Shown here: positions 2,200 through 20,635 of the stretch, piece after piece
Position numbering within the stretch: position 1 is the stretch's first letter
Layout of the letters: each line of letters opens with the position of its first letter
Virus record (IMG/VR): IMGVR_UViG_2778261393_000002
Reading direction: 5' to 3' (one strand)
DNA length: 29,964 nucleotides
Source: a virus
Lineage: Duplodnaviria; Heunggongvirae; Uroviricota; Caudoviricetes
Made by a program: the position numbers and the translations under genes
The notes under the pieces: model-generated
The model's input: only the letters and a program-made list of their open reading frames with translations
Database searches by the model: none
What the model was told of the DNA's origin: nothing

Positions 2200-2466
2200 T
2201 TATTGCTGTTTTGTTTTTTCCGGTTTCCATCCTGGGTGCCAATCGCCACGGATCCACGCCTGAATCTCCGAGAGACGATAGCCAGCGGCACGTTCACCAA
2301 TCTTAATACGTTTTGGGAACTTACCTGTCTTTTCCAGTTTCCAGCGTGTTGAATTTGCCAGCGTAGTAAGTGCCACGCATTCTTTTTCACGAATGACACG
2401 ATCAATATCCGGCATTGCAGTAAAATCTTTTTCATCAACAAGTGAATAAACTGACATATCAAACAA
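2200..2466 (-). CDS. alpA: AlpA-family phage transcriptional regulator, excisionase-like
   Basis: Translation contains DRVIREKECVALTTLANSTRWKLEKTGKFPKRIKIG, typical of AlpA/Vis-type winged-helix proteins. Sits immediately downstream of and overlapping the integrase stop. Exact start uncertain (M1, M4 or M18). Confidence 0.75.
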   Translation of the reverse strand: MFDMSVYSLVDEKDFTAMPDIDRVIREKECVALTTLANSTRWKLEKTGKFPKRIKIGERAAGYRLSEIQAWIRGDWHPGWKPEKTKQQ

Positions 2467-3700
2467 CCTCTTTACTCAGTTCAATAACGTTATTATTAAA
2501 TCCGGCTATCGTGTTAAGGTAATTAACCCACATATTAAGAACCTCAAGTTTTTTCTTTACATGCTTGCTTTTATTATAAACACCCGCCACACCTTTAACT
2601 TTATGACCAAGCAGAAGCTCTACAATATAAGGATCGGCACCCATATCGTTAAGCATTGTTGAAAATGTACGCCTGAAATCATGTATGCACCACAGACCAT
2701 TTACATCATGCCCTAGCCGCCTGCATATCCGGCTTGCTGCTCCTGTTATTGTCGCTCGCTTCAGTGATCTACCGATAACACAATCCCGGTGCTTTGTTTC
2801 CGCATAAAGATTAATAACCCATTGTTTTATTCCATCAGGGACTGGTCTTACAATAACCTCGCCGTTCTTGCTGTGCTCTTTTGGAACTGTCCAAATCCAG
2901 TTTTTTAAATCCCATTCTTCCCAAGTGGATAACCGCGCCTCCTGCTGACGGCAACCAAACACCAGGCAGATAACCATAATTCTTCGGTTATGTATTGATG
3001 AAAGGGTAAGTAAATTGTTGCCATAGGCATAAGACCATACGTCAGCGGCTTCATTAATACTCAGAACACGATCCCTTATGCCTGCTGAACGTCCAACATA
3101 ACTAACGTTAATATCACCGAATGGATCGCAACTAATGTATTGCCTGATACGGCAAAAACGTAACGCCTGTTTAATATCAAGAAAAATAGCACCAGACATA
3201 ACAGGAGCATTTTTTTTAATTCTGTCAAATACAGTAAGCCAGGTATGCAATTTGCACTGTTCTATAGCCATATCTCCGATATATGGAAAAATATGCTTTT
3301 CAAATCTTTTTATTAAATACTCATGCTGCTTTCTGGCTGTCCTGGCGTGATTATCGTACCAGTAAAGCACCGCATCCCTTACAGTTACAGGGCGCATGTT
3401 TTTTTCAGCTACAAGTTTTATTTGTCTGCGAGGATCCAGATTTTCCGCCAGCCATTCACGGCACTGGTCGCGTAATCTCCTGGCGGCTGCCAGAGACATA
3501 TCAGGATAACGCCCAAGGGTCAGCCATACCGGAGGGGCATCCCTGCCGCCAATACGATAGTAAAAAACGAAACTAATTCCCCCAACCACGCTTACACGAA
3601 CAGATAGCCCCCGCCCATCAGCCATGATTTTTTGTCTGTCCTGCGGCTTACCTGCAAGACTTTTCAGAAGTTTGTCAGTCAGTTTATTCTCGATAGCCAT
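2459..3700 (-). CDS. int: Tyrosine integrase, P4-like
   Basis: 413 aa from MAIENKL (start codon 3698-3700). Phage-integrase catalytic region visible (HDFRRTF ... LLGHK ... VYN). Paired with alpA as in P4-family elements. The listed ORF extends 24 codons further upstream to 3772. Confidence 0.85.
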   Translation of the reverse strand: MAIENKLTDKLLKSLAGKPQDRQKIMADGRGLSVRVSVVGGISFVFYYRIGGRDAPPVWLTLGRYPDMSLAAARRLRDQCREWLAENLDPRRQIKLVAEKNMRPVTVRDAVLYWYDNHARTARKQHEYLIKRFEKHIFPYIGDMAIEQCKLHTWLTVFDRIKKNAPVMSGAIFLDIKQALRFCRIRQYISCDPFGDINVSYVGRSAGIRDRVLSINEAADVWSYAYGNNLLTLSSIHNRRIMVICLVFGCRQQEARLSTWEEWDLKNWIWTVPKEHSKNGEVIVRPVPDGIKQWVINLYAETKHRDCVIGRSLKRATITGAASRICRRLGHDVNGLWCIHDFRRTFSTMLNDMGADPYIVELLLGHKVKGVAGVYNKSKHVKKKLEVLNMWVNYLNTIAGFNNNVIELSKEVV

Positions 3701-3718
3701 ATGTAGCCTACACGTCAA

Positions 3719-3772
3719 TTTGCAATACACACCCCATCCAAACGCCAACTTGCAATACACATTGCAATACAC
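3719..3772. repeat. Three direct copies of TTGCAATACAC upstream of the integrase start
   Basis: Copies at 3720-3730, 3750-3760 and 3762-3772. The last two are tandem with a 12-bp period. They lie about 20-70 bp upstream of the int start codon. Confidence 0.6.
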
Positions 3773-8045: not shown

Positions 8046-8912
8046 CTAAGCGAGGTTCTGGTTTTCAAATTGTTCCGGACTGAGGCCGCCACACCAACTG
8101 TGCCGCCGCCACCGATTGTAATCACATTCGATATAATTAAACACCGTTGCCCGCATTATTTCCCGGCTGATAAAGTGTTCTCCATGGATACATTCCACTT
8201 TCAGCGAATGAAAGAAGCTTTCCACGCAGGCATTATCGTAGCAGCAACCTTTTGCGCTCATACTTCCACGCAGATTATGCCGCTTCAGTTGCGCCTGATA
8301 ATCTGCTGAACAGTACTGGCCTCCACGGTCCGTGTGAACGATAACGTTCCAGGGCCTCTTACGCCGCCACAGCGCCATCTGCAGGGCATCGCAGGCCAGT
8401 TGCGCCGTCATGCGTGGCGACATTGACCAGCCAATAACGGCACGTGACCACAGGTCAATGACCACTGCCAGATACAGCCAGCCTTCATCTGTACGTAAGT
8501 ACGTGATGTCTCCTGCCCACTTCTGGTTCGGGCCACTGGCGTAAAAATCCTGCTCCAACAGATTTTCTGACACAGGCAGGCCGTGTGCGCGGTAGCTGAC
8601 CGGGCTGAACTTCCGGGAGGCCTTTGCCCTCAGTCCCTGACGGCGCAGGCTTGCCGCCACGGTTTTTTCGTTAAAGGGGTAACCCTGAGCACGCAGTTCA
8701 TCCGTCAGGCGTGGGGCACCGTAACGCTGTTTTGACCGGGTAAAAGCCGCGAGGACAACGCTGTCGCAGTGTTGGCGGAACTGCTGACGCGTGCTTATCC
8801 TTGTCCGCCGCTGACACCACGTATACCAGCCGCTGCGGGCCACCCGGAGCACGCGGCACATTGCTTTGATGCTGAACTCAGCCTGATGTTTTTCAATAAA
8901 GACATACTTCAT
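8046..8912 (-). CDS. insF: IS3 transposase OrfB
   Basis: 288 aa with DDE transposase/integrase core (WAGDITYL ... HTDRGGQY ... [11 protein letters not shown]). Matches IS3 InsF as remembered. Confidence 0.95.
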
Positions 8913-9217
8913 TTCAGGCGCTTCGCGAAGTATGTCGCGGCCTTTTGGAGGATAGCCAGCTCTTCATCCCGTTCTGCCAGCTGGCGTTTGAGACGTGCAA
9001 TCTCGGTAGACATCTCCAGTTCACGTTCAGAAGACGTCTGCTGATTTTGCTGTTTACTGCGCCAGTTGTAGAGCTGTGATTCATACAGGCTGAGTTCACG
9101 GGCTGCGGCAGTAACACCGATGCGTTCAGCAAGCTTCAGGGCTTCACTGCGAAATTCAGGCGAATGCTGTTTACGGGGTTTTTTACTGGTTGATACTGTT
9201 TTTGTCATGTGAGTCAC
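8909..9217 (-). CDS. insE: IS3 transposase OrfA (HTH)
   Basis: 102 aa ending in a leucine-zipper-like segment. Its stop overlaps the orfB ATG in the -1 frame, as expected for IS3-family programmed frameshifting. Confidence 0.95.
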
Positions 9218-12003: not shown

Positions 12004-12747
12004 TTATTCTTGAGTAACACTTAAACTCATCTCATTGAATGCAGCCATCCTGTAACCTGCCGGTGTAACACCAAAATAACTCCTGAATACGCTGATAAAA
12101 TAAGATGTAAAATTATAGCCACACTGAGCAGCGATTCTGTTGATGGCGCAACGAGATTGATTCAACAGCATTGCTGCCATTCTCATTCTCTCTGTAAGCA
12201 ACAACTCACTGAAACAGGTGCCTTCTTCTTTCAGTCTTTTTTTTAACAAACTTTCACTGATACATAACCGCGAAGACACATCTCTCAGAGTCCAGTTTGC
12301 TGCAATGTCCGTACGAAACAATGCACTAAGCCTGTCACTAATATTGCCAATACACGCGGTCAGAAACGACGAAAACATTTTCTCTGATGAGAAAAACGCC
12401 AGACACGAAAAGGAAAGCATTTCCGCTAAATTGTCCGTATGAATCTTTTCCTCACAAAGATAATCAATCAGGATGCCCATCAATTCTGCCTTGGGAAAAC
12501 TCACGCAAAGATATCGTGGTATTTGCCGGACTAAAACTACATCCTGTTTTTCGTCTCCACACAACAGGTAACGGATAATTGTCGATTCACTGAGACTTAT
12601 TCGCCGAAAACATTCCGAAAAGGGCAATAACGATCCAGCTCCCCCCCTGACAAGAAGTGCACTACCACTTTCCAGAGAGAGCTCTTTTCCTTCAAAGAGC
12701 ACAACAAACGGGGAATGAACAAAAACAACAGAACAAGCTTCATTCAT
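12004..12747 (-). CDS. AraC-family transcriptional regulator, AppY/GadX-like
   Basis: C-terminal AraC HTH signature (SESLLKKRLKEEGTCFSELLLTERMRMAAMLLNQSRCAINRIAAQCGYNFTSYFISVFRSYFGVTPAGY). N-terminal CSVVF motif shared with DLP12 AppY as recalled. Start taken at MNEACSVVF. Confidence 0.8.
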   Translation of the reverse strand: MNEACSVVFVHSPFVVLFEGKELSLESGSALLVRGGAGSLLPFSECFRRISLSESTIIRYLLCGDEKQDVVLVRQIPRYLCVSFPKAELMGILIDYLCEEKIHTDNLAEMLSFSCLAFFSSEKMFSSFLTACIGNISDRLSALFRTDIAANWTLRDVSSRLCISESLLKKRLKEEGTCFSELLLTERMRMAAMLLNQSRCAINRIAAQCGYNFTSYFISVFRSYFGVTPAGYRMAAFNEMSLSVTQE

Positions 12748-12969
12748 ATCAATTGCCCTGACATTACTGGTCACAAGATAAGTATATATCGATTTACAAA
12801 AATACAAGCCGAAAGACCAGTATTCGCAACCACCAGCGCGTTTAACGTCCTGTACCGTTTTTCAGGCATAAAAAACCCGCTCAGTGGCGGGTTTAAGCTG
12901 TTTGGCGTAGTAACCACTCTTAACAGGATATTCAACTTTTTACGATCGTAAAGCGTTCGGGGAAAATTT

Positions 12970-13458
12970 TTAAAACCGTTCCAGAGTGCATACCATCGCA
13001 TCGGCGGGTAGTTTTTCCGTGAAGTCGACCTGACCGTGTTTATCGAAGTGGATCAGTAATGCGCATCCATCATTTTGGGTTGGGGTGTTTTGTGCTGCTG
13101 GTGGTTGTTTTTGGCTGAAATAACAGTCTTCCAGTTTTTCGAACACTTCCCACGCCTGATCGGTTTCCAGCATTTTGGCGTGACGGGCTGCTCCGCGTTC
13201 TGTCCAGAGGATGAGGTGCTTTGTACGCGGTGCAACTAAGTTACTTTGAGTAACCTTGTTCTTAAATTCCCGCAACTCAGCCCCTTCCAATTTGAAGTAG
13301 TGTTTCCCACAAACAAAACGCTCGGCATTGCGTGTATAGTTCACTTTGATGTTATTAGTTTCGGTGCCATAAAGTTGTGCCAAAAGCTCGGTAGTAATGA
13401 CAGGGATTTGGTTATGGGTGATCGGGGAAAGAGTTTCAACTGAGATTTGAATAGCCAT
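12970..13458 (-). CDS. ORF6N-domain DNA-binding protein, antirepressor-like
   Basis: 162 aa. N-terminus (ITTELLAQLYGTETNNIKVNYTRNAERFVCGKHYFKLEGAELREFK) fits the ORF6N/KilA-N-like pattern. SD AAGGA upstream. Confidence 0.6.
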   Translation of the reverse strand: MAIQISVETLSPITHNQIPVITTELLAQLYGTETNNIKVNYTRNAERFVCGKHYFKLEGAELREFKNKVTQSNLVAPRTKHLILWTERGAARHAKMLETDQAWEVFEKLEDCYFSQKQPPAAQNTPTQNDGCALLIHFDKHGQVDFTEKLPADAMVCTLERF

Positions 13459-13612
13459 AGGATGATCCTTTTTCTATGTGAATCATCACCACTGCTGACG
13501 CCAATCAGTATGGTGGTGAACTGTGCAGGGTTGGCGTAACCGGGAAAAAGGAACCGGCGCGGATCGCTCCGCCCCCACACAGCCCACCATTGAGATGTGA
13601 CAGTGCAAACGA

Positions 13613-13637
13613 CAATAAAAAAGACGCTGGCGCGTCT
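13613..13637 (-). terminator. tR'-like Rho-independent terminator downstream of Q
   Basis: Stem AGACGC (13622-13627) and GCGTCT (13632-13637) with 4-nt loop, then a U-run on the minus strand (plus-strand AATAAAAA 13613-13620). About 95 nt downstream of the Q stop, as expected for a late-promoter leader terminator. Confidence 0.5.
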
Positions 13638-13731
13638 GTTGTCGCCTTTTTCATCCGGGACGCCAATCCCGACGCCAGATTTTGCTGGCGCGTGAGGAAT
13701 ATAGCCCCGGACAATGTGTCTGGTCAAGCTC

Positions 13732-15894: not shown

Positions 15895-15921
15895 GGAAAA
15901 AACAAAACCCGCCGAAGCGGG
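15895..15921 (-). terminator. Rho-independent terminator, UUCG-loop hairpin plus U-run
   Basis: Minus strand reads CCCGC UUCG GCGGG followed by TTTTGTTTTTT (plus 15895-15921). Confidence 0.5.
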
Positions 15922-16120
15922 TATGCTAAAACAAACTGAAAGTAATATACCGGACTTGTAAAGGAACGATAGAATAATTATTGGATTAAACCCTGACTCA
16001 ATCCAGATTTCATAGGCAACAACTACGGACTAATCATCACAGTCATGTTTGATAGGCTTAGTCCACATTGGGTGAGGGTTTACGGCGTTTTCACTAATAA
16101 TTTATCGTCCAAGCTATACA

Positions 16121-16513
16121 CTACTGCCCTGTTTTAACGAAGTTTTTAAAGGAAACAACTGCCTGATAGGGGTTTGGTTGACAGCCAAACATATTATCGC
16201 AAAAAGGCTTGATGAAAATTCTTGAGGATCCATCTTCATTTGGCATTTTACTCACTTGATAAGCGAGGAATGGACTATTTGGAGAGGGATTATAAGTGGA
16301 AATTAGCGTGTCTGTCGCCGTTTGAATTTTCCATGAGGAATTATTAGCCAACCAGAATTGCGCTCGTTTCCAATAAAAGTCACATTGCTTTTCATCATTA
16401 CATGTTAGTGGCTTCATTGCTTCTGCTTTCAACGCTGGATCGACCTTTGCTGCACACCCTCCCAACATTACTGTTGCAATCATTACACCTGCGACTAAAA
16501 CAAGTTTCTTCAT
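16121..16513 (-). CDS. Lipoprotein of unknown function (moron)
   Basis: 130 aa with signal peptide and lipobox (MKKLVLVAGVMIATVMLGGCAAK). Mature part has four Cys. Flanking DNA looks AT-rich by eye. Confidence 0.65.
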   Translation of the reverse strand: MKKLVLVAGVMIATVMLGGCAAKVDPALKAEAMKPLTCNDEKQCDFYWKRAQFWLANNSSWKIQTATDTLISTYNPSPNSPFLAYQVSKMPNEDGSSRIFIKPFCDNMFGCQPNPYQAVVSFKNFVKTGQ

Positions 16514-16656
16514 CTCCCTGCCCCATCAATAAAAGTTCGGTTCTCTAATAACTAGAGTTAATCAACGGAAAAAACGCCGAAGCGGGTTAAGTGCGGGTGC
16601 GTTGAGGATGCCTGACACATCAGAGGTGGCGAGGGATTTCTCCCCCGCCAGGTCTC

Positions 16657-16812
16657 TTACTCCTCAGGTTCGTAAGCTGTGAAGACAGCGACCTCCGTCT
16701 GGCCGGTTCGGATTCGTACCTCGCAGAGGTCTTTCCTCGTTACCAGTGCCGTCACAATGACGGTTAAACAGATGACGATCAGGGCGATTAACATCGCCTT
16801 TTGCTGCTTCAT
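16657..16812 (-). CDS. hokD: Hok/Gef-family type I toxin
   Basis: 51 aa MKQQKAMLIALIVICLTVIVTALVTRKDLCEVRIRTGQTEVAVFTAYEPEE with AAGGAG SD, matching HokD/RelF as recalled. An overlapping upstream frame (to 16869) is the mok-like reading frame. Confidence 0.85.
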   Translation of the reverse strand: MKQQKAMLIALIVICLTVIVTALVTRKDLCEVRIRTGQTEVAVFTAYEPEE

Positions 16813-17023
16813 AGCCTGCTTCTCCTTGCCTTTCGGCACGTAAGAGGCTAACCTAGATTTGCCGTTCATAGATTGAGCCTCAGATTAATGTTAAGCGTCT
16901 TGCAGGACGCGTAATGTTAACTGGGGCTTTTCTCTATCTGCCTTTGGTGTTCATGCCTGAGACAGATAGCCTCAAGCACCCGCAGCCATTCTACTTAACT
17001 CCCGTTACCTCGCCAATATAAAA

Positions 17024-17113
17024 TCAATCAGAAAGGCGATCCATAAGAACAACAGCAAGACAATAAATTGCCATTACAGCTGCAATAGCCAGCGCACATT
17101 TGAGAACCAGCAC
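17024..17113 (-). CDS. Candidate small hydrophobic peptide, 29 aa
   Basis: Perfect SD AGGAGG (plus 17119-17124), 5 nt spacer, GTG start (17111-17113). Translation (M)LVLKCALAIAAVMAIYCLAVVLMDRLSD is one transmembrane helix plus a short charged tail. Not in the supplied ORF track because it is under 60 aa. Confidence 0.3.
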   Translation of the reverse strand: MLVLKCALAIAAVMAIYCLAVVLMDRLSD

Positions 17114-17399
17114 GACAACCTCCTGTATTGGACGTACACCAGTCCTGATAAATATGAGGCTGTCTCATCATTGATGAGATACAACTATTGGGTATAGTTT
17201 CTGTGATTTTGTTCTGTAGAAATGGAACACAACAACCAGTCACCACCAGCACTTCTTTAAATACGCCAAGTCCGACGCAAGCTAACCTTCTAGTCCGCTT
17301 TGAGCGAGAAGCGGGCCTTTCGACAACCATATTTAGATGAATAGTGGGCTAGGAATACTTTAGCAATTACATTGCTAATATCAATATAAGTAGTAGATT

Positions 17400-17433
17400 C
17401 AAAAAAAATAAGCCACCTAAAAAGCATGGCTTA
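17400..17433 (-). terminator. Rho-independent terminator ending the AT-rich cargo cassette
   Basis: Stem TAAGCCA (17409-17415) and TGGCTTA (17427-17433), followed on the minus strand by an 8-nt U-run (plus-strand A-run 17401-17408). 13 nt after the stop of the 417-aa ORF. Confidence 0.6.
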
Positions 17434-17445
17434 ATTGCAAATAAA

Positions 17446-18699
17446 TTACATTTTATCAATTTCAGAAATGATCCTATCAATTTCATCAATGCTTGCTTGA
17501 ATTGTTAGATTATTTTTTATTATCTCAAGTAATTCTATTGCTCTTCTTTTGGGCCTTGATGACACCAGTTCTGAATTTGCTCTTTCATTCTCCACGAACA
17601 ACCGTGAGAGAGCCATCAATTGATTACTATTTAACACATCTAAAAATGGTTGAAGTACTAAATGTGCATCAGATCTTCCCCAGTAATTCCCCACCCAAAC
17701 AGTAAGTATTTCTTGATATACATCTTCAAATGCAATAGATGGAACATGAGGTCCAAATTGTATAAGTGCCTTGGCTGCTCTTTCTTCATCATTCCAGCCG
17801 TAAGATGTATCCTTAGCTTTAGCTAGCTGTTTAACCGCATGTCTGTATAAACTTGCCCTAGCAGCATCAGGTATAAATTTCACACCATTAACTTTTACTA
17901 AAGTCTCTAAAATTCTTATTTTTGCTCCTTTATCCTCACTTGTATCCGATTCGGGCTCCAGCATAAATGAGTGATATCTTTCCCCCGCTGTTTTTTTAAG
18001 GTCATCATTAGATCTTTCCCATGCTTGTTCAAACAACTTGCTAGCATTAACATAAGCAGGATTTTCCCCCTTAGTTATTAAATCCAATAAAAATCCAAAT
18101 GTTATTCTTATATCAGCTTGCTTAAATGCTCTTATTTGATCTTTAAGTAAGTCTATGCTCTCAATTGATAGTTCAGATTTTTTTATGGGTTCAAATAATC
18201 CAGATGGCGAATGTCCAGGGTCTGGCATATCAGATTCGAATAAATTCTTCTGGAGCATAAGAGCCAAAGCAAACACATCCTCAGACTCTACTTTACTATC
18301 ACTTGCATGGGCTGGAGAGGCATGGTTTCTCATCCAATTGATCATTTCTAATGATTTTCCAGCTTTCTTATGCAGAACCCCTAATTTGGTGGCTCCACTT
18401 ATTAGCACTAAATCATCTACACCTGACCATCTCTCGTTTATTGTTTCACCATCTTTATCATATTTTTTACGACCACTATCATCCTTTATTGCGGAAAGGA
18501 ATAAGTCTAAACCATAAGCCTCAATTCGCCGCCTAAGATTATGAATGGATGCATTCCATATATCTAAAAGAGCATGATCAGGGAAGCCAGAATCTAACAA
18601 CTTTCTAGCTTGCGAAAGGAATTCTATTTCAGTATTAACTGTTGCAGGAAAATTAGTTGTTGATGGCGAGCTTAATAAAACCGGGAGATTTTTTGACAT
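17446..18699 (-). CDS. Hypothetical protein, 417 aa (cargo gene B, candidate defence effector)
   Basis: Long uninterrupted ORF in an AT-rich segment with SD AAGGAAA upstream. No family recognised. Contains an R-x6-H motif (MRNHASPAH) of the kind seen in HEPN RNases. Confidence 0.8.
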   Translation of the reverse strand: MSKNLPVLLSSPSTTNFPATVNTEIEFLSQARKLLDSGFPDHALLDIWNASIHNLRRRIEAYGLDLFLSAIKDDSGRKKYDKDGETINERWSGVDDLVLISGATKLGVLHKKAGKSLEMINWMRNHASPAHASDSKVESEDVFALALMLQKNLFESDMPDPGHSPSGLFEPIKKSELSIESIDLLKDQIRAFKQADIRITFGFLLDLITKGENPAYVNASKLFEQAWERSNDDLKKTAGERYHSFMLEPESDTSEDKGAKIRILETLVKVNGVKFIPDAARASLYRHAVKQLAKAKDTSYGWNDEERAAKALIQFGPHVPSIAFEDVYQEILTVWVGNYWGRSDAHLVLQPFLDVLNSNQLMALSRLFVENERANSELVSSRPKRRAIELLEIIKNNLTIQASIDEIDRIISEIDKM

Positions 18700-19312
18700 T
18701 GAATTTCCTTTAAGTAAAAATTATAATCTATGTCTTTGTGAACAAATTTACACGATATTGTAACCTTGCAGGTGCAAGAAGTAGTGTTCAAATAAATACG
18801 TGAAGAGAAAAAATCCGCCATGACAAAGCTATACACTATTCCCAATTCTTAAAAAATTCAATATGTTTAAAAAATTAATTTTCAAAACTAGCATCCTAAT
18901 ACTCTAAACACACCTATATACAACTAAGGATATGAACAGTATCCTTTTATAGAAGGAGTCTGATCCCTACAGATTTAGAGATTTTAATGTTTGTTAACTT
19001 CCGCCTATGACACAGAGGTGCTGTTGCAGCCCTAAAAACCTTATGTTTTGTTCAAGTCAGAGCTATACGACGCATCGTCGAATTCAATGCCCAAGCAACG
19101 GATTGTGCTTGCCAGTTTCTTATGGTTCAACAGAGGTTCAATGATTAGTATGCTGTAAAGCAAATCTTCGAGACAAAACTTCTCTACCCCCCATGAAAAA
19201 TTTCGGTTGAATTGCCTGGGTGATGTGTGCCGGATAGCTCCAACTCGAGACTGAAGCATGAAGTCTTTACTATGAAAATTAGCAGACTGTATACGCAGCC
19301 TGCTAGTTTATG

Positions 19313-20434
19313 TTAGAGCTTATAAAGTTCAATTAATCTGGATTTTTCTCTGTCAAATTCTTCATCAAGATTTGAGAAGTCTGGAAGTGTAACCATTAAA
19401 TCCTTAAGTTGATGAATAACATTCCAGACATCGTAATGAATAAAGGGATTTAAGCCAATTACATTCCCCTCATCATTATTTTTAGATTTCCCTACACCAC
19501 ACAATTTGATGAATTTGTTGATTGCAGTTGTTTCATTCCAGTCCGAGACAAAAAGAAGCAAGGCAGATACAGCCAAAAGGGGGTTATTTTTTTTAACAGC
19601 GGATATACCCCTGATTTTCCTAAAAAGAAATTCGTGATGCCTGGTTATTTTTTGTGCAACTCTTATCGTTGCTTCATATTTTTCTTTAAGCAACCTTCTA
19701 TCATAAACCTGATAACCTCGATCTCGTGCTACTAATCGATGTGCTTGTTTAGTAAATGTGGTACTATTCACAAGATTATAGAAAACAGAATTATTTTCAT
19801 TAGTCATGTCGATCATCAATGATGGATATTTGAATCTTAACGAACGATACACTTCATCGTTTATATCAAACCAGGATTTATTTTTCCTCTCTTCATCTAC
19901 AATATATTTACTTTCTCCCTTACGGGAATACATGCTGGCCCTTATTAGATTGATCATGTGAGGGCTATAGTTAACAGAAAAAGTGCCTGACTGGCGTAAT
20001 TCTGTAAACCATTGCCGCATGTTTCGAATATCTTCCTGATTGAACTCATCATGTTCAATACCTCTACATACAAGCTCGCGAATTATACTTGTAATCTCAG
20101 AACCTGAGGTGCCGAATTTTATAAAACCATCCCTTGATGAATCTATTTGCTTATCATTACCACTGTAATGATCGCAAAATACTTTGTGTGCATCAGTTCC
20201 GTCTTTTGTTCTAAACGAAAAATGAGATTGGCTGACTATCTTATTTGTTCTTTTCGAATAACCTTCTGAAACAACAATCGCACCGCTTACATTGCAAATT
20301 GGGCACTCTGCATCAAAGGCAACAAATTCCTTGAAATCACTGAAATTGAGTGCGTTATCTGATGAGTAATGGTTTAACAATTGAACCATGTCCAATTCCT
20401 TTTTGAATGTACGAGAATAGACCGTAATTGCCAT
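19313..20434 (-). CDS. Hypothetical protein, 373 aa (cargo gene A)
   Basis: Start taken at MAITVYS (codon 20432-20434) with SD AAGGGAG 7 nt upstream. No family recognised. N-terminal Cys/His cluster (ECPICNVSG ... HKVFCDHY). Confidence 0.8.
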   Translation of the reverse strand: MAITVYSRTFKKELDMVQLLNHYSSDNALNFSDFKEFVAFDAECPICNVSGAIVVSEGYSKRTNKIVSQSHFSFRTKDGTDAHKVFCDHYSGNDKQIDSSRDGFIKFGTSGSEITSIIRELVCRGIEHDEFNQEDIRNMRQWFTELRQSGTFSVNYSPHMINLIRASMYSRKGESKYIVDEERKNKSWFDINDEVYRSLRFKYPSLMIDMTNENNSVFYNLVNSTTFTKQAHRLVARDRGYQVYDRRLLKEKYEATIRVAQKITRHHEFLFRKIRGISAVKKNNPLLAVSALLLFVSDWNETTAINKFIKLCGVGKSKNNDEGNVIGLNPFIHYDVWNVIHQLKDLMVTLPDFSNLDEEFDREKSRLIELYKL

Positions 20435-20635
20435 TTGAACTCCCTTCATCATAATTTTGGTTGTATGAAATATTATCGCATAAAGATACTAATGAGCCAG
20501 TAATATAACTAGAAACGACTTTTTGTGGTTCAGCGAACTAGACGTCCGCTCCTGGCACAAAGCGGACAACCACGCTAGCTCTACCCTGTGCCACAAAATG
20601 TCAATTTGCATCTGAACTAATGCACTTTAATCTCG

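Follow-up and report, generated by a model that had tools for sequence, protein, structure and literature searches.

In Escherichia coli O157:H7, hokW-sokW of prophage Sp5 has been described as a working toxin-antitoxin pair (Toxins 2021), which depends on RNase III and Hfq and is switched on by prophage induction, with phage release roughly doubled (PMC8621323). Loci of the hok family have been reported to be enriched in prophages (bioRxiv 10.1101/2025.08.07.668861), and those of E. coli K-12, except for hokB, to be inactivated, insertion elements or rearrangements having removed canonical components (PMC12214031; PMC2654758); an intact homologue of the K-12 gene hokD has been reported in another strain (PMC7232551). 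Here, we compare with these systems a hok locus found in a stretch of 29,964 nucleotides (nt) from a virus of the Caudoviricetes (IMG/VR record IMGVR_UViG_2778261393_000002), hereafter the window, in which features of the minus strand are marked (-) and those of the plus strand (+).

The region 16568-17016 (-) very probably constitutes a complete hok/mok/sok type I toxin-antitoxin cassette of the hokD/hokW type, carried by a lambdoid prophage. We analyzed its sequence elements, the alternative pairings predicted for its mRNA together with the covariation of these, whether relBE is present, and how frequent the cassette is in the population. An initial annotation had placed at 16570-17030, on a strand that it did not name, a hok/mok locus devoid of the relBE genes that accompany hokD in K-12. 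That span fits the cassette, whose promoter starts with the -35 box at 17016 and whose U-run ends at 16569, and the strand is the minus one.

Toxin frames and promoter of the hok mRNA

The hok toxin gene (16812..16657, (-)) encodes 51 amino acids (aa), which are 100% identical to K-12 HokD, assigned to Pfam HOK_GEF and matching the NCBIfam Hok family under the curated cutoff of that family. The mok frame (16869..16657, (-)), present in the list of open reading frames (ORFs), is a 70-aa in-frame extension of hok at the N terminus, which matches Pfam HOK_GEF (PF01848) at 3e-23 and is 89% identical to the annotated Mok of an Sp5-like Shiga toxin 2 (Stx2) phage, with a Shine-Dalgarno sequence, GAGG (16881..16878), located 8 nt ahead of the mok AUG. 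Both frames are free of frameshifts, and the cassette presents neither an insertion sequence (IS) element nor a promoter lesion, so that the toxin peptide and the overlapping frame are intact, as previously annotated. The toxicity of RelF, as the product of hokD is also named, is established (Gerdes 1986, cited in PMC8621323). Furthermore, the tetranucleotide UACG read at the Tyr47 codon (16671..16674, (-)) would correspond to the motif of the adenosine-to-inosine editing by TadA that has been reported for hokD mRNA (PMC12214031).

Upstream of the leader, a consensus scan identified a promoter composed of a -35 box TTGGCG, a 17-nt spacer and a -10 box TAGAAT (17016..16988, (-)), which is kept in seven related loci and in phage HannyBb and is conserved even beside unrelated upstream DNA. 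From the promoter, the hok transcript would be expected to start at about 16981, approximately 7 nt downstream of the -10 box, and it is at this nucleotide that position 1 of the Rfam sok model (RF01794) aligns. The model, which represents the strand of the hok leader, Sok being a partial complement of that strand, covers 16981..16807 (-) with 110 bits, compared with a gathering score of 59; the same model scores 113.5 bits in the Sp5-like phage and 87.2 bits in an R1-type plasmid.

Predicted folding of the hok mRNA

On the basis of the Rfam start and of the fold, the full-length mRNA would extend to the U-run over approximately 414 nt (16568..16981, (-)). The 414-nt RNA 16981..16568 has a minimum free energy of -164.3 kcal/mol and a z score of -7.8. 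At its 5' end lies tac (GGGUGCUUGAGG; 16970..16981, (-)), predicted to pair with fbi or, after 3' shortening, with ucb. The fbi element (CCUCAACGCACCC; 16595..16607, (-)), recognized from the folds and from compensatory changes, is complementary to tac with one bulged C, and in the full-length fold nt 1 to 12 (tac) pair with nt 375 to 387 (fbi) with probabilities of 0.97 to 1.0. The folds, together with the consensus pairs, delimit ucb (AAGCCCCAG; 16921..16929, (-)) and dcb (16876..16883, (-)), the latter containing the mok Shine-Dalgarno GAGG. In the predicted full-length structure, ucb (16929..16921) is paired with the region of the mok Shine-Dalgarno (16883..16876), and in an RNA shortened by 45 nt at its 3' end, tac is predicted to pair anew with ucb. 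The switch between the ucb-dcb and tac-ucb pairings is thus a prediction of the full-length and shortened folds. In the shortened fold, the mok start region forms a hairpin (nt 101 to 138), the apical loop of which contains ACGGC, a complement of the predicted 5' end of Sok.

A genome scan for Hok yielded 53 loci in Escherichia, Shigella, Kluyvera, Photorhabdus, Pantoea, Citrobacter and others, in which the tac-fbi helix is retained in 14 distinct tac/fbi combinations; R1 was left out of the pair comparison, its fbi having been misplaced by the automatic search. Both sides have changed at 3 of the 12 pairs, namely, pair 4 (U-A to C-G) and pairs 11 and 12 (G-C to A-U), and these compensatory changes span loci of Escherichia, Kluyvera, Photorhabdus, Pantoea and Citrobacter. 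We therefore regard the tac-fbi pairing as being under selection, because its pairs covary. In the K-12-type loci (L009 and L030), neither tac nor a matching duplex was present. Moreover, the consensus fold of 14 leaders comprises 31 pairs, 8 of which show compensatory changes, including the 5' hairpin and the ucb-dcb pairing (consensus columns 72 to 77 and 121 to 126, with covariation at 77/121).

Sok antisense unit

The initial annotation had suggested that hok would depend on a promoter of its own and on a Sok-like antisense RNA, and both elements could be located. By homology, the sok promoter was identified on the opposite strand (16826..16854, (+)), with a -35 box TTGCCT (16826-16831), a 17-nt spacer and a -10 box TAACCT (16849-16854), antisense to the hok leader. 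Like the hok terminator, it was missed by the consensus scan, and the two were found through homology and folding. The 30-nt oligonucleotide YO-597 used in the hokW-sokW study matches the window at 30 of 30 positions (16824-16853), an interval that takes in the -35 box and the spacer and, of the -10 box, four bases; the wild-type sok -10 box of the Sp5-like copy is likewise TAACCT. In all, two oligonucleotides of that study, YO-597 included, match the window exactly, and a third has 3 mismatches in 50 nt. The sok promoter of the window has the same sequence as the validated sokW promoter of the Sakai prophage Sp5, for which the change of the -10 box from TAACCT to GAGCCG, in the "promoter-less" construct, led to the loss of protection, that is, of antitoxin activity (PMC8621323). 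The position of this promoter is shared by all 14 aligned loci, with TTGCCT or TTGACC, 17 nt and TAnnCT.

The predicted Sok RNA (16861..16935, (+)), for which a start near 16861 is proposed from promoter spacing only, would be approximately 71 to 75 nt long and would consist of a free 5' tail of 9 nt, a long hairpin and UUUUCUCU. Its predicted fold, a hairpin followed by a U-run, has an energy of -31.5 kcal/mol, and the RNA is complementary to nt 47 to 121 of the hok mRNA, including the mok Shine-Dalgarno and AUG. For sokW, 71 complementary nucleotides have been reported (PMC8621323).

Proposed mode of action

With transcription starts, 3' processing, dependence on RNase III and Hfq, toxicity and biological role taken by analogy from R1 hok/sok and from hokW-sokW of Sp5, the following scheme can be proposed. 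The hok mRNA would be transcribed from its own promoter, starting near 16981, and, as long as it is full length, the closure by tac and fbi and the occupation of the mok ribosome-binding site by ucb would render it untranslatable and closed to Sok. Trimming of the 3' end past fbi would allow tac to move to ucb and would free the mok start region as a hairpin, with an apical loop that is the complement of the Sok 5' end. This antisense RNA, roughly 73 nt long and transcribed from its own promoter inside mok, would then pair across the mok start site, blocking the translation of mok and the coupled translation of hok and marking the duplex for cleavage. Should the supply of Sok end, Hok would be produced and would damage the inner membrane. 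The role of the cassette could be the maintenance of the prophage or an earlier lysis after induction.

Relationship with the K-12 hokD locus

In K-12, hokD (relF) of the Qin prophage encodes an identical Hok and shares with the window 98.1% of DNA identity over 16569-16826, reaching from the ribosome-binding site of hok as far as the terminator, in the same prophage surroundings, with DUF968 (YdfU) and Q downstream. Different from the window, relBE precedes hokD in K-12 (L001), where the gene order is relB, relE, hokD, rem, ydfU and relE ends 71 nt upstream of hokD. In a three-way alignment, identity with K-12 starts at AGGAGAAGCAGGCTATG, corresponding to the hok ribosome-binding site, and the end of relE lies upstream of it in K-12; the last homologous position is 16826, which precedes the hok ATG by 14 nt. 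K-12 is devoid of both the hok and the sok promoter, of tac and ucb and of the mok start, and retains the full terminator; Rfam detected no sok element at the K-12 locus.

The absence of relBE from the window was confirmed. Searches by tblastn with K-12 RelE and RelB returned nothing near or upstream of hok, no short ORF pair occurs between hok and the DUF977 gene, and Pfam assigned no family to the 100-aa, 417-aa and 379-aa ORFs found in that interval. A match to RelE/RelB at 2272-2457 (27% identity over 62 aa, E value of 0.019), 14 kb away, was attributed to chance, as it had no support from PHROGs or NCBIfam and its ORF belongs to no family.

At least 80% of the region 16569-17000 is present in 4020 of 5426 complete E. 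coli genomes, mostly at 95 to 99% identity, and the K-12 relE-hokD junction is found in 1165 of them. The same share of the cassette occurs in 74 phage records, with 93% identity in Stx phages, and in Stx-converting phages the cassette is annotated as MokW, host killer or RelF. It follows that the expectation centered on K-12 has to be corrected, the full cassette being found in approximately 74% of complete E. coli genomes and the relE-hokD junction in approximately 21%. Thus, the architecture does differ from that of K-12, as the initial annotation stated, but the novelty implied by the contrast does not hold, as the window carries the complete majority form and K-12 a rearranged relic, in agreement with the literature. 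K-12 hokD is a truncated minority form, in which the 5' half of the cassette is gone and relE sequence is in its place.

The inactivation of the K-12 hok loci could suggest that the copy in the window is likewise a decaying relic without a selected function, the more so since the prophage looks degraded, with an IS3-family transposase (8046-8912) and a second integrase (2459-3772). Every element of the cassette is nevertheless intact, without any frameshift, IS element or promoter lesion, and is 93 to 100% identical to the copies in inducible phages and in the 4020 genomes, which makes decay a most improbable explanation.

The hok terminator and the downstream lipoprotein-like gene

The weak terminator-like hairpin with a U-run noticed in the initial annotation is real. 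Alignment and folding identify it as a degenerate remnant of the hokD terminator (16569..16587, (-)), formed by a 3-bp stem (CGC/UUCG/GCG) followed by U6, which folds no better than shuffled sequence (z score of -0.12), compared with -12.8 kcal/mol for the K-12 hairpin. The canonical hokD terminator, ACCCGCUUCGGCGGGUUUUU, is present in K-12 and in most other copies. After fbi, most hokD-type copies continue with AACCCGCUUCGGCGGGUUUUU, whereas the window, strain KV7 and phage vB_EcoS-689R5 continue with AACCCGCUUCGGCGUUUUUUCCG. An intact hokD-type terminator (15904..15922, (-); -13.1 kcal/mol, z score of -3.5) now lies 3' of a lipoprotein-like gene, and a 19-nt direct repeat of the terminator (D3) marks both terminator sites. 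Beyond 15904, the window continues with the sequence that immediately follows hokD in the uninterrupted loci L008 and L010. Because of this continuity and of the repeat at both sites, we conclude that a 665-bp cassette (15923..16568, (-)) sits inside the hok terminator. It carries the lipoprotein-like gene (16513..16121, (-)), which encodes 130 aa with a signal peptide ending in LGGC and belongs to phrog_16082, and it occurs in 255 of the 5426 complete E. coli genomes at 95 to 100% identity. In the consensus scan, the interval from the U-run to the start of the lipoprotein gene yielded no promoter-like site; read-through from hok into the lipoprotein gene is therefore plausible on sequence grounds. 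In the Sp5-like phage, an unrelated gene for a periplasmic protein directly follows fbi, without a terminator.

It is possible to hypothesize, although tentatively, that the insertion gives rise to a hok-lipoprotein transcript of approximately 1.1 kb, in which the constitutive hok promoter and the stable locked mRNA would serve as an expression platform for a gene expressed in the lysogen. If so, fbi would be internal to the 1.1-kb transcript and the timing of Hok activation would be altered, and the design could be recurrent, since the Sp5-like phage has another gene at this place without a terminator.

Taken further, the same observations could mean that the sequence of the cassette is intact and its function altered or silenced. 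With the terminator destroyed, hok transcripts would run for approximately 665 nt to 15904-15922, fbi would be internal, trimming would be abnormal and the hok promoter would mainly serve the lipoprotein gene. The remnant that folds like its shuffles, the intact terminator 665 nt downstream, the lack of a promoter-like site ahead of the lipoprotein gene and the similar arrangement in the Sp5-like phage all agree with this explanation. On the other hand, the tac-fbi pairing needs no nearby 3' end, so that the locked state would still form, and endonucleolytic cuts could stand in for exonucleolytic trimming. In addition, this junction is found fixed in no fewer than three separate records (the window, KV7 and phage 689R5), the lipoprotein cassette is spread over 255 genomes at 95 to 100% identity, and hokW is functional although it also has no terminator. 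On balance, we consider a loss or change of function unlikely, and a complete cassette of the ordinary kind remains the preferred reading.

Some points do weigh against that reading. The sok promoter fits 7 of 12 consensus positions and falls below the threshold of a simple scan, by which it is hence not listed; the support for this copy comes from its sequence; the degenerate terminator may prevent the normal 3' end and the activating 3' trimming from forming as in R1; and the chromosomal hokA, hokB and hokC have been reported not to mediate post-segregational killing (bioRxiv 10.1101/2025.08.07.668861).

Upstream spacer, cargo slot and prophage context

A conserved, yet unannotated, segment of approximately 310 bp (17001-17314) accompanies hokD in 1745 of the 5426 genomes. 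It contains a conserved ORF for a hydrophobic peptide of 29 aa (MLVLKCALAIAAVMAIYCLAVVLMDRLSD; 17113..17024, (-)), which begins with GTG, preceded at a distance of 5 nt by AGGAGG, and is intact in seven copies, including that of phage HannyBb, and frameshifted in one, the substitutions being synonymous or conservative. No family was assigned to it in PHROGs or NCBIfam, the only two collections searched, and it could represent a small membrane protein or a second toxin-like peptide. As for structured RNA in the spacer, neither the Rfam scan (16950-17460, E values up to 5), which returned the edge of the sok model only, nor the folding of the 301-nt spacer (z score of -0.9) provided evidence.

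Upstream of 17314, the slot that extends to the DUF977 gene (17314-20600) holds a different cargo in every genome examined (L001, L002 and L059 to L063). K-12 carries relBE, ydfV and flxA, KV7 carries RES and Lit genes, and others carry a methyltransferase with SMEK or several uncharacterized genes; relBE in K-12 is thus a single option among many at this site. The window has here a low-GC island (35% G+C) comprising two genes, of 417 and 379 aa; the product of the former has a HEPN-like domain, and that of the latter is without a structural match. The slot upstream of hok would accordingly be a site where prophages swap toxin or defence cargo, such as relBE in K-12, RES and Lit in KV7 and the HEPN-like gene in the window. 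The left boundary of the slot was placed at a hairpin near 17290-17313, the outer arm of which is still complementary in some genomes despite different flanking DNA.

Like hok, both the 417-aa gene and the 29-aa ORF lie on the minus strand, and the stop codon of the 29-aa ORF falls 8 nt ahead of the hok -35 box, an arrangement in which hok might be expressed mainly by read-through from either of them, as in K-12, and not from its own promoter. A hairpin and U8 directly follow the 417-aa gene, however, and because of them, we argue that its transcription stops before the spacer. Furthermore, the hok promoter is conserved despite unrelated upstream DNA, and the folding scheme requires tac at the extreme 5' end, with the tac-fbi covariation indicating selection. 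Dependence on read-through is accordingly improbable, and expression from the promoter at 17016..16988 is the explanation that we favor.

The cassette lies between replication genes (DUF977 and YdaT) and the DUF968/Q region. The window as a whole is organized as a lambdoid prophage, with a lambda-type integrase, a CI-like S24 repressor, YdaT and DUF977, then the hok region, and, beyond it, DUF968, an ORF6N antirepressor with C4 and isrK RNAs, an AraC-type regulator, an endolysin, an IS3-family transposase, the large terminase and a second integrase. Rfam matches adjoining the ORF6N antirepressor gene, at 13509-13704 (-) and 12970-13458 (-), comprise a C4 antisense RNA (74 bits), its a1/b1 target (52 bits) and isrK (79 bits), and this group is an antirepressor immunity module of the P1/P7 type within a lambdoid prophage. 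The AraC-family regulator (12004-12807, (-)) is located in a low-GC patch, the IS3-family transposase (8046-9217, (-)) in the late region, and the second integrase, a tyrosine integrase (2459-3772, (-)), beyond the terminase. The prophage looks rearranged or defective.

Comparison with known systems

The cassette is the ordinary prophage form of hok/sok, already described and characterized as hokW-sokW, and has little weight as a discovery; exact coordinates are now available for each regulatory element of this copy. The DNA of the Sp5-like Stx2 phage (L004) is 93% identical to it over 416 bp, and the two share the kind of carrier element, the sok promoter and a similar Rfam score. By this likeness, Hok toxicity and its suppression by Sok may be inferred for the copy in the window. 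Distinctive features are the C terminus of Hok, which is FTAYEPEE in the window and FVDYESEK in HokW, the first mok codons and the 5' end of Sok, which differ, and the downstream gene, which encodes a YgiW-like periplasmic protein in the Sp5-like phage and a lipoprotein in the window.

In the R1 hok/sok (parB) system, the elements follow one another as in the window and the predicted folding scheme is the same, and the blocks of tac, the mok Shine-Dalgarno, the sok -10 and -35 boxes and the hok Shine-Dalgarno align. Its Hok is 39% identical to that of the window, mok of R1 does not share the frame of hok, and R1 hok/sok is borne by a plasmid, compared with a prophage here; moreover, the Sok hairpin of the window has a 16-nt insertion relative to R1. 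In hokC/mokC/sokC (gef), Hok is 82% identical, mok is in frame with hok and the tac-fbi pair is the same, whereas the leader measures approximately 150 nt, compared with 169 in the window, owing to the absence of the insertion in the Sok hairpin, the terminator is different and the locus occupies a fixed chromosomal site, with no prophage.
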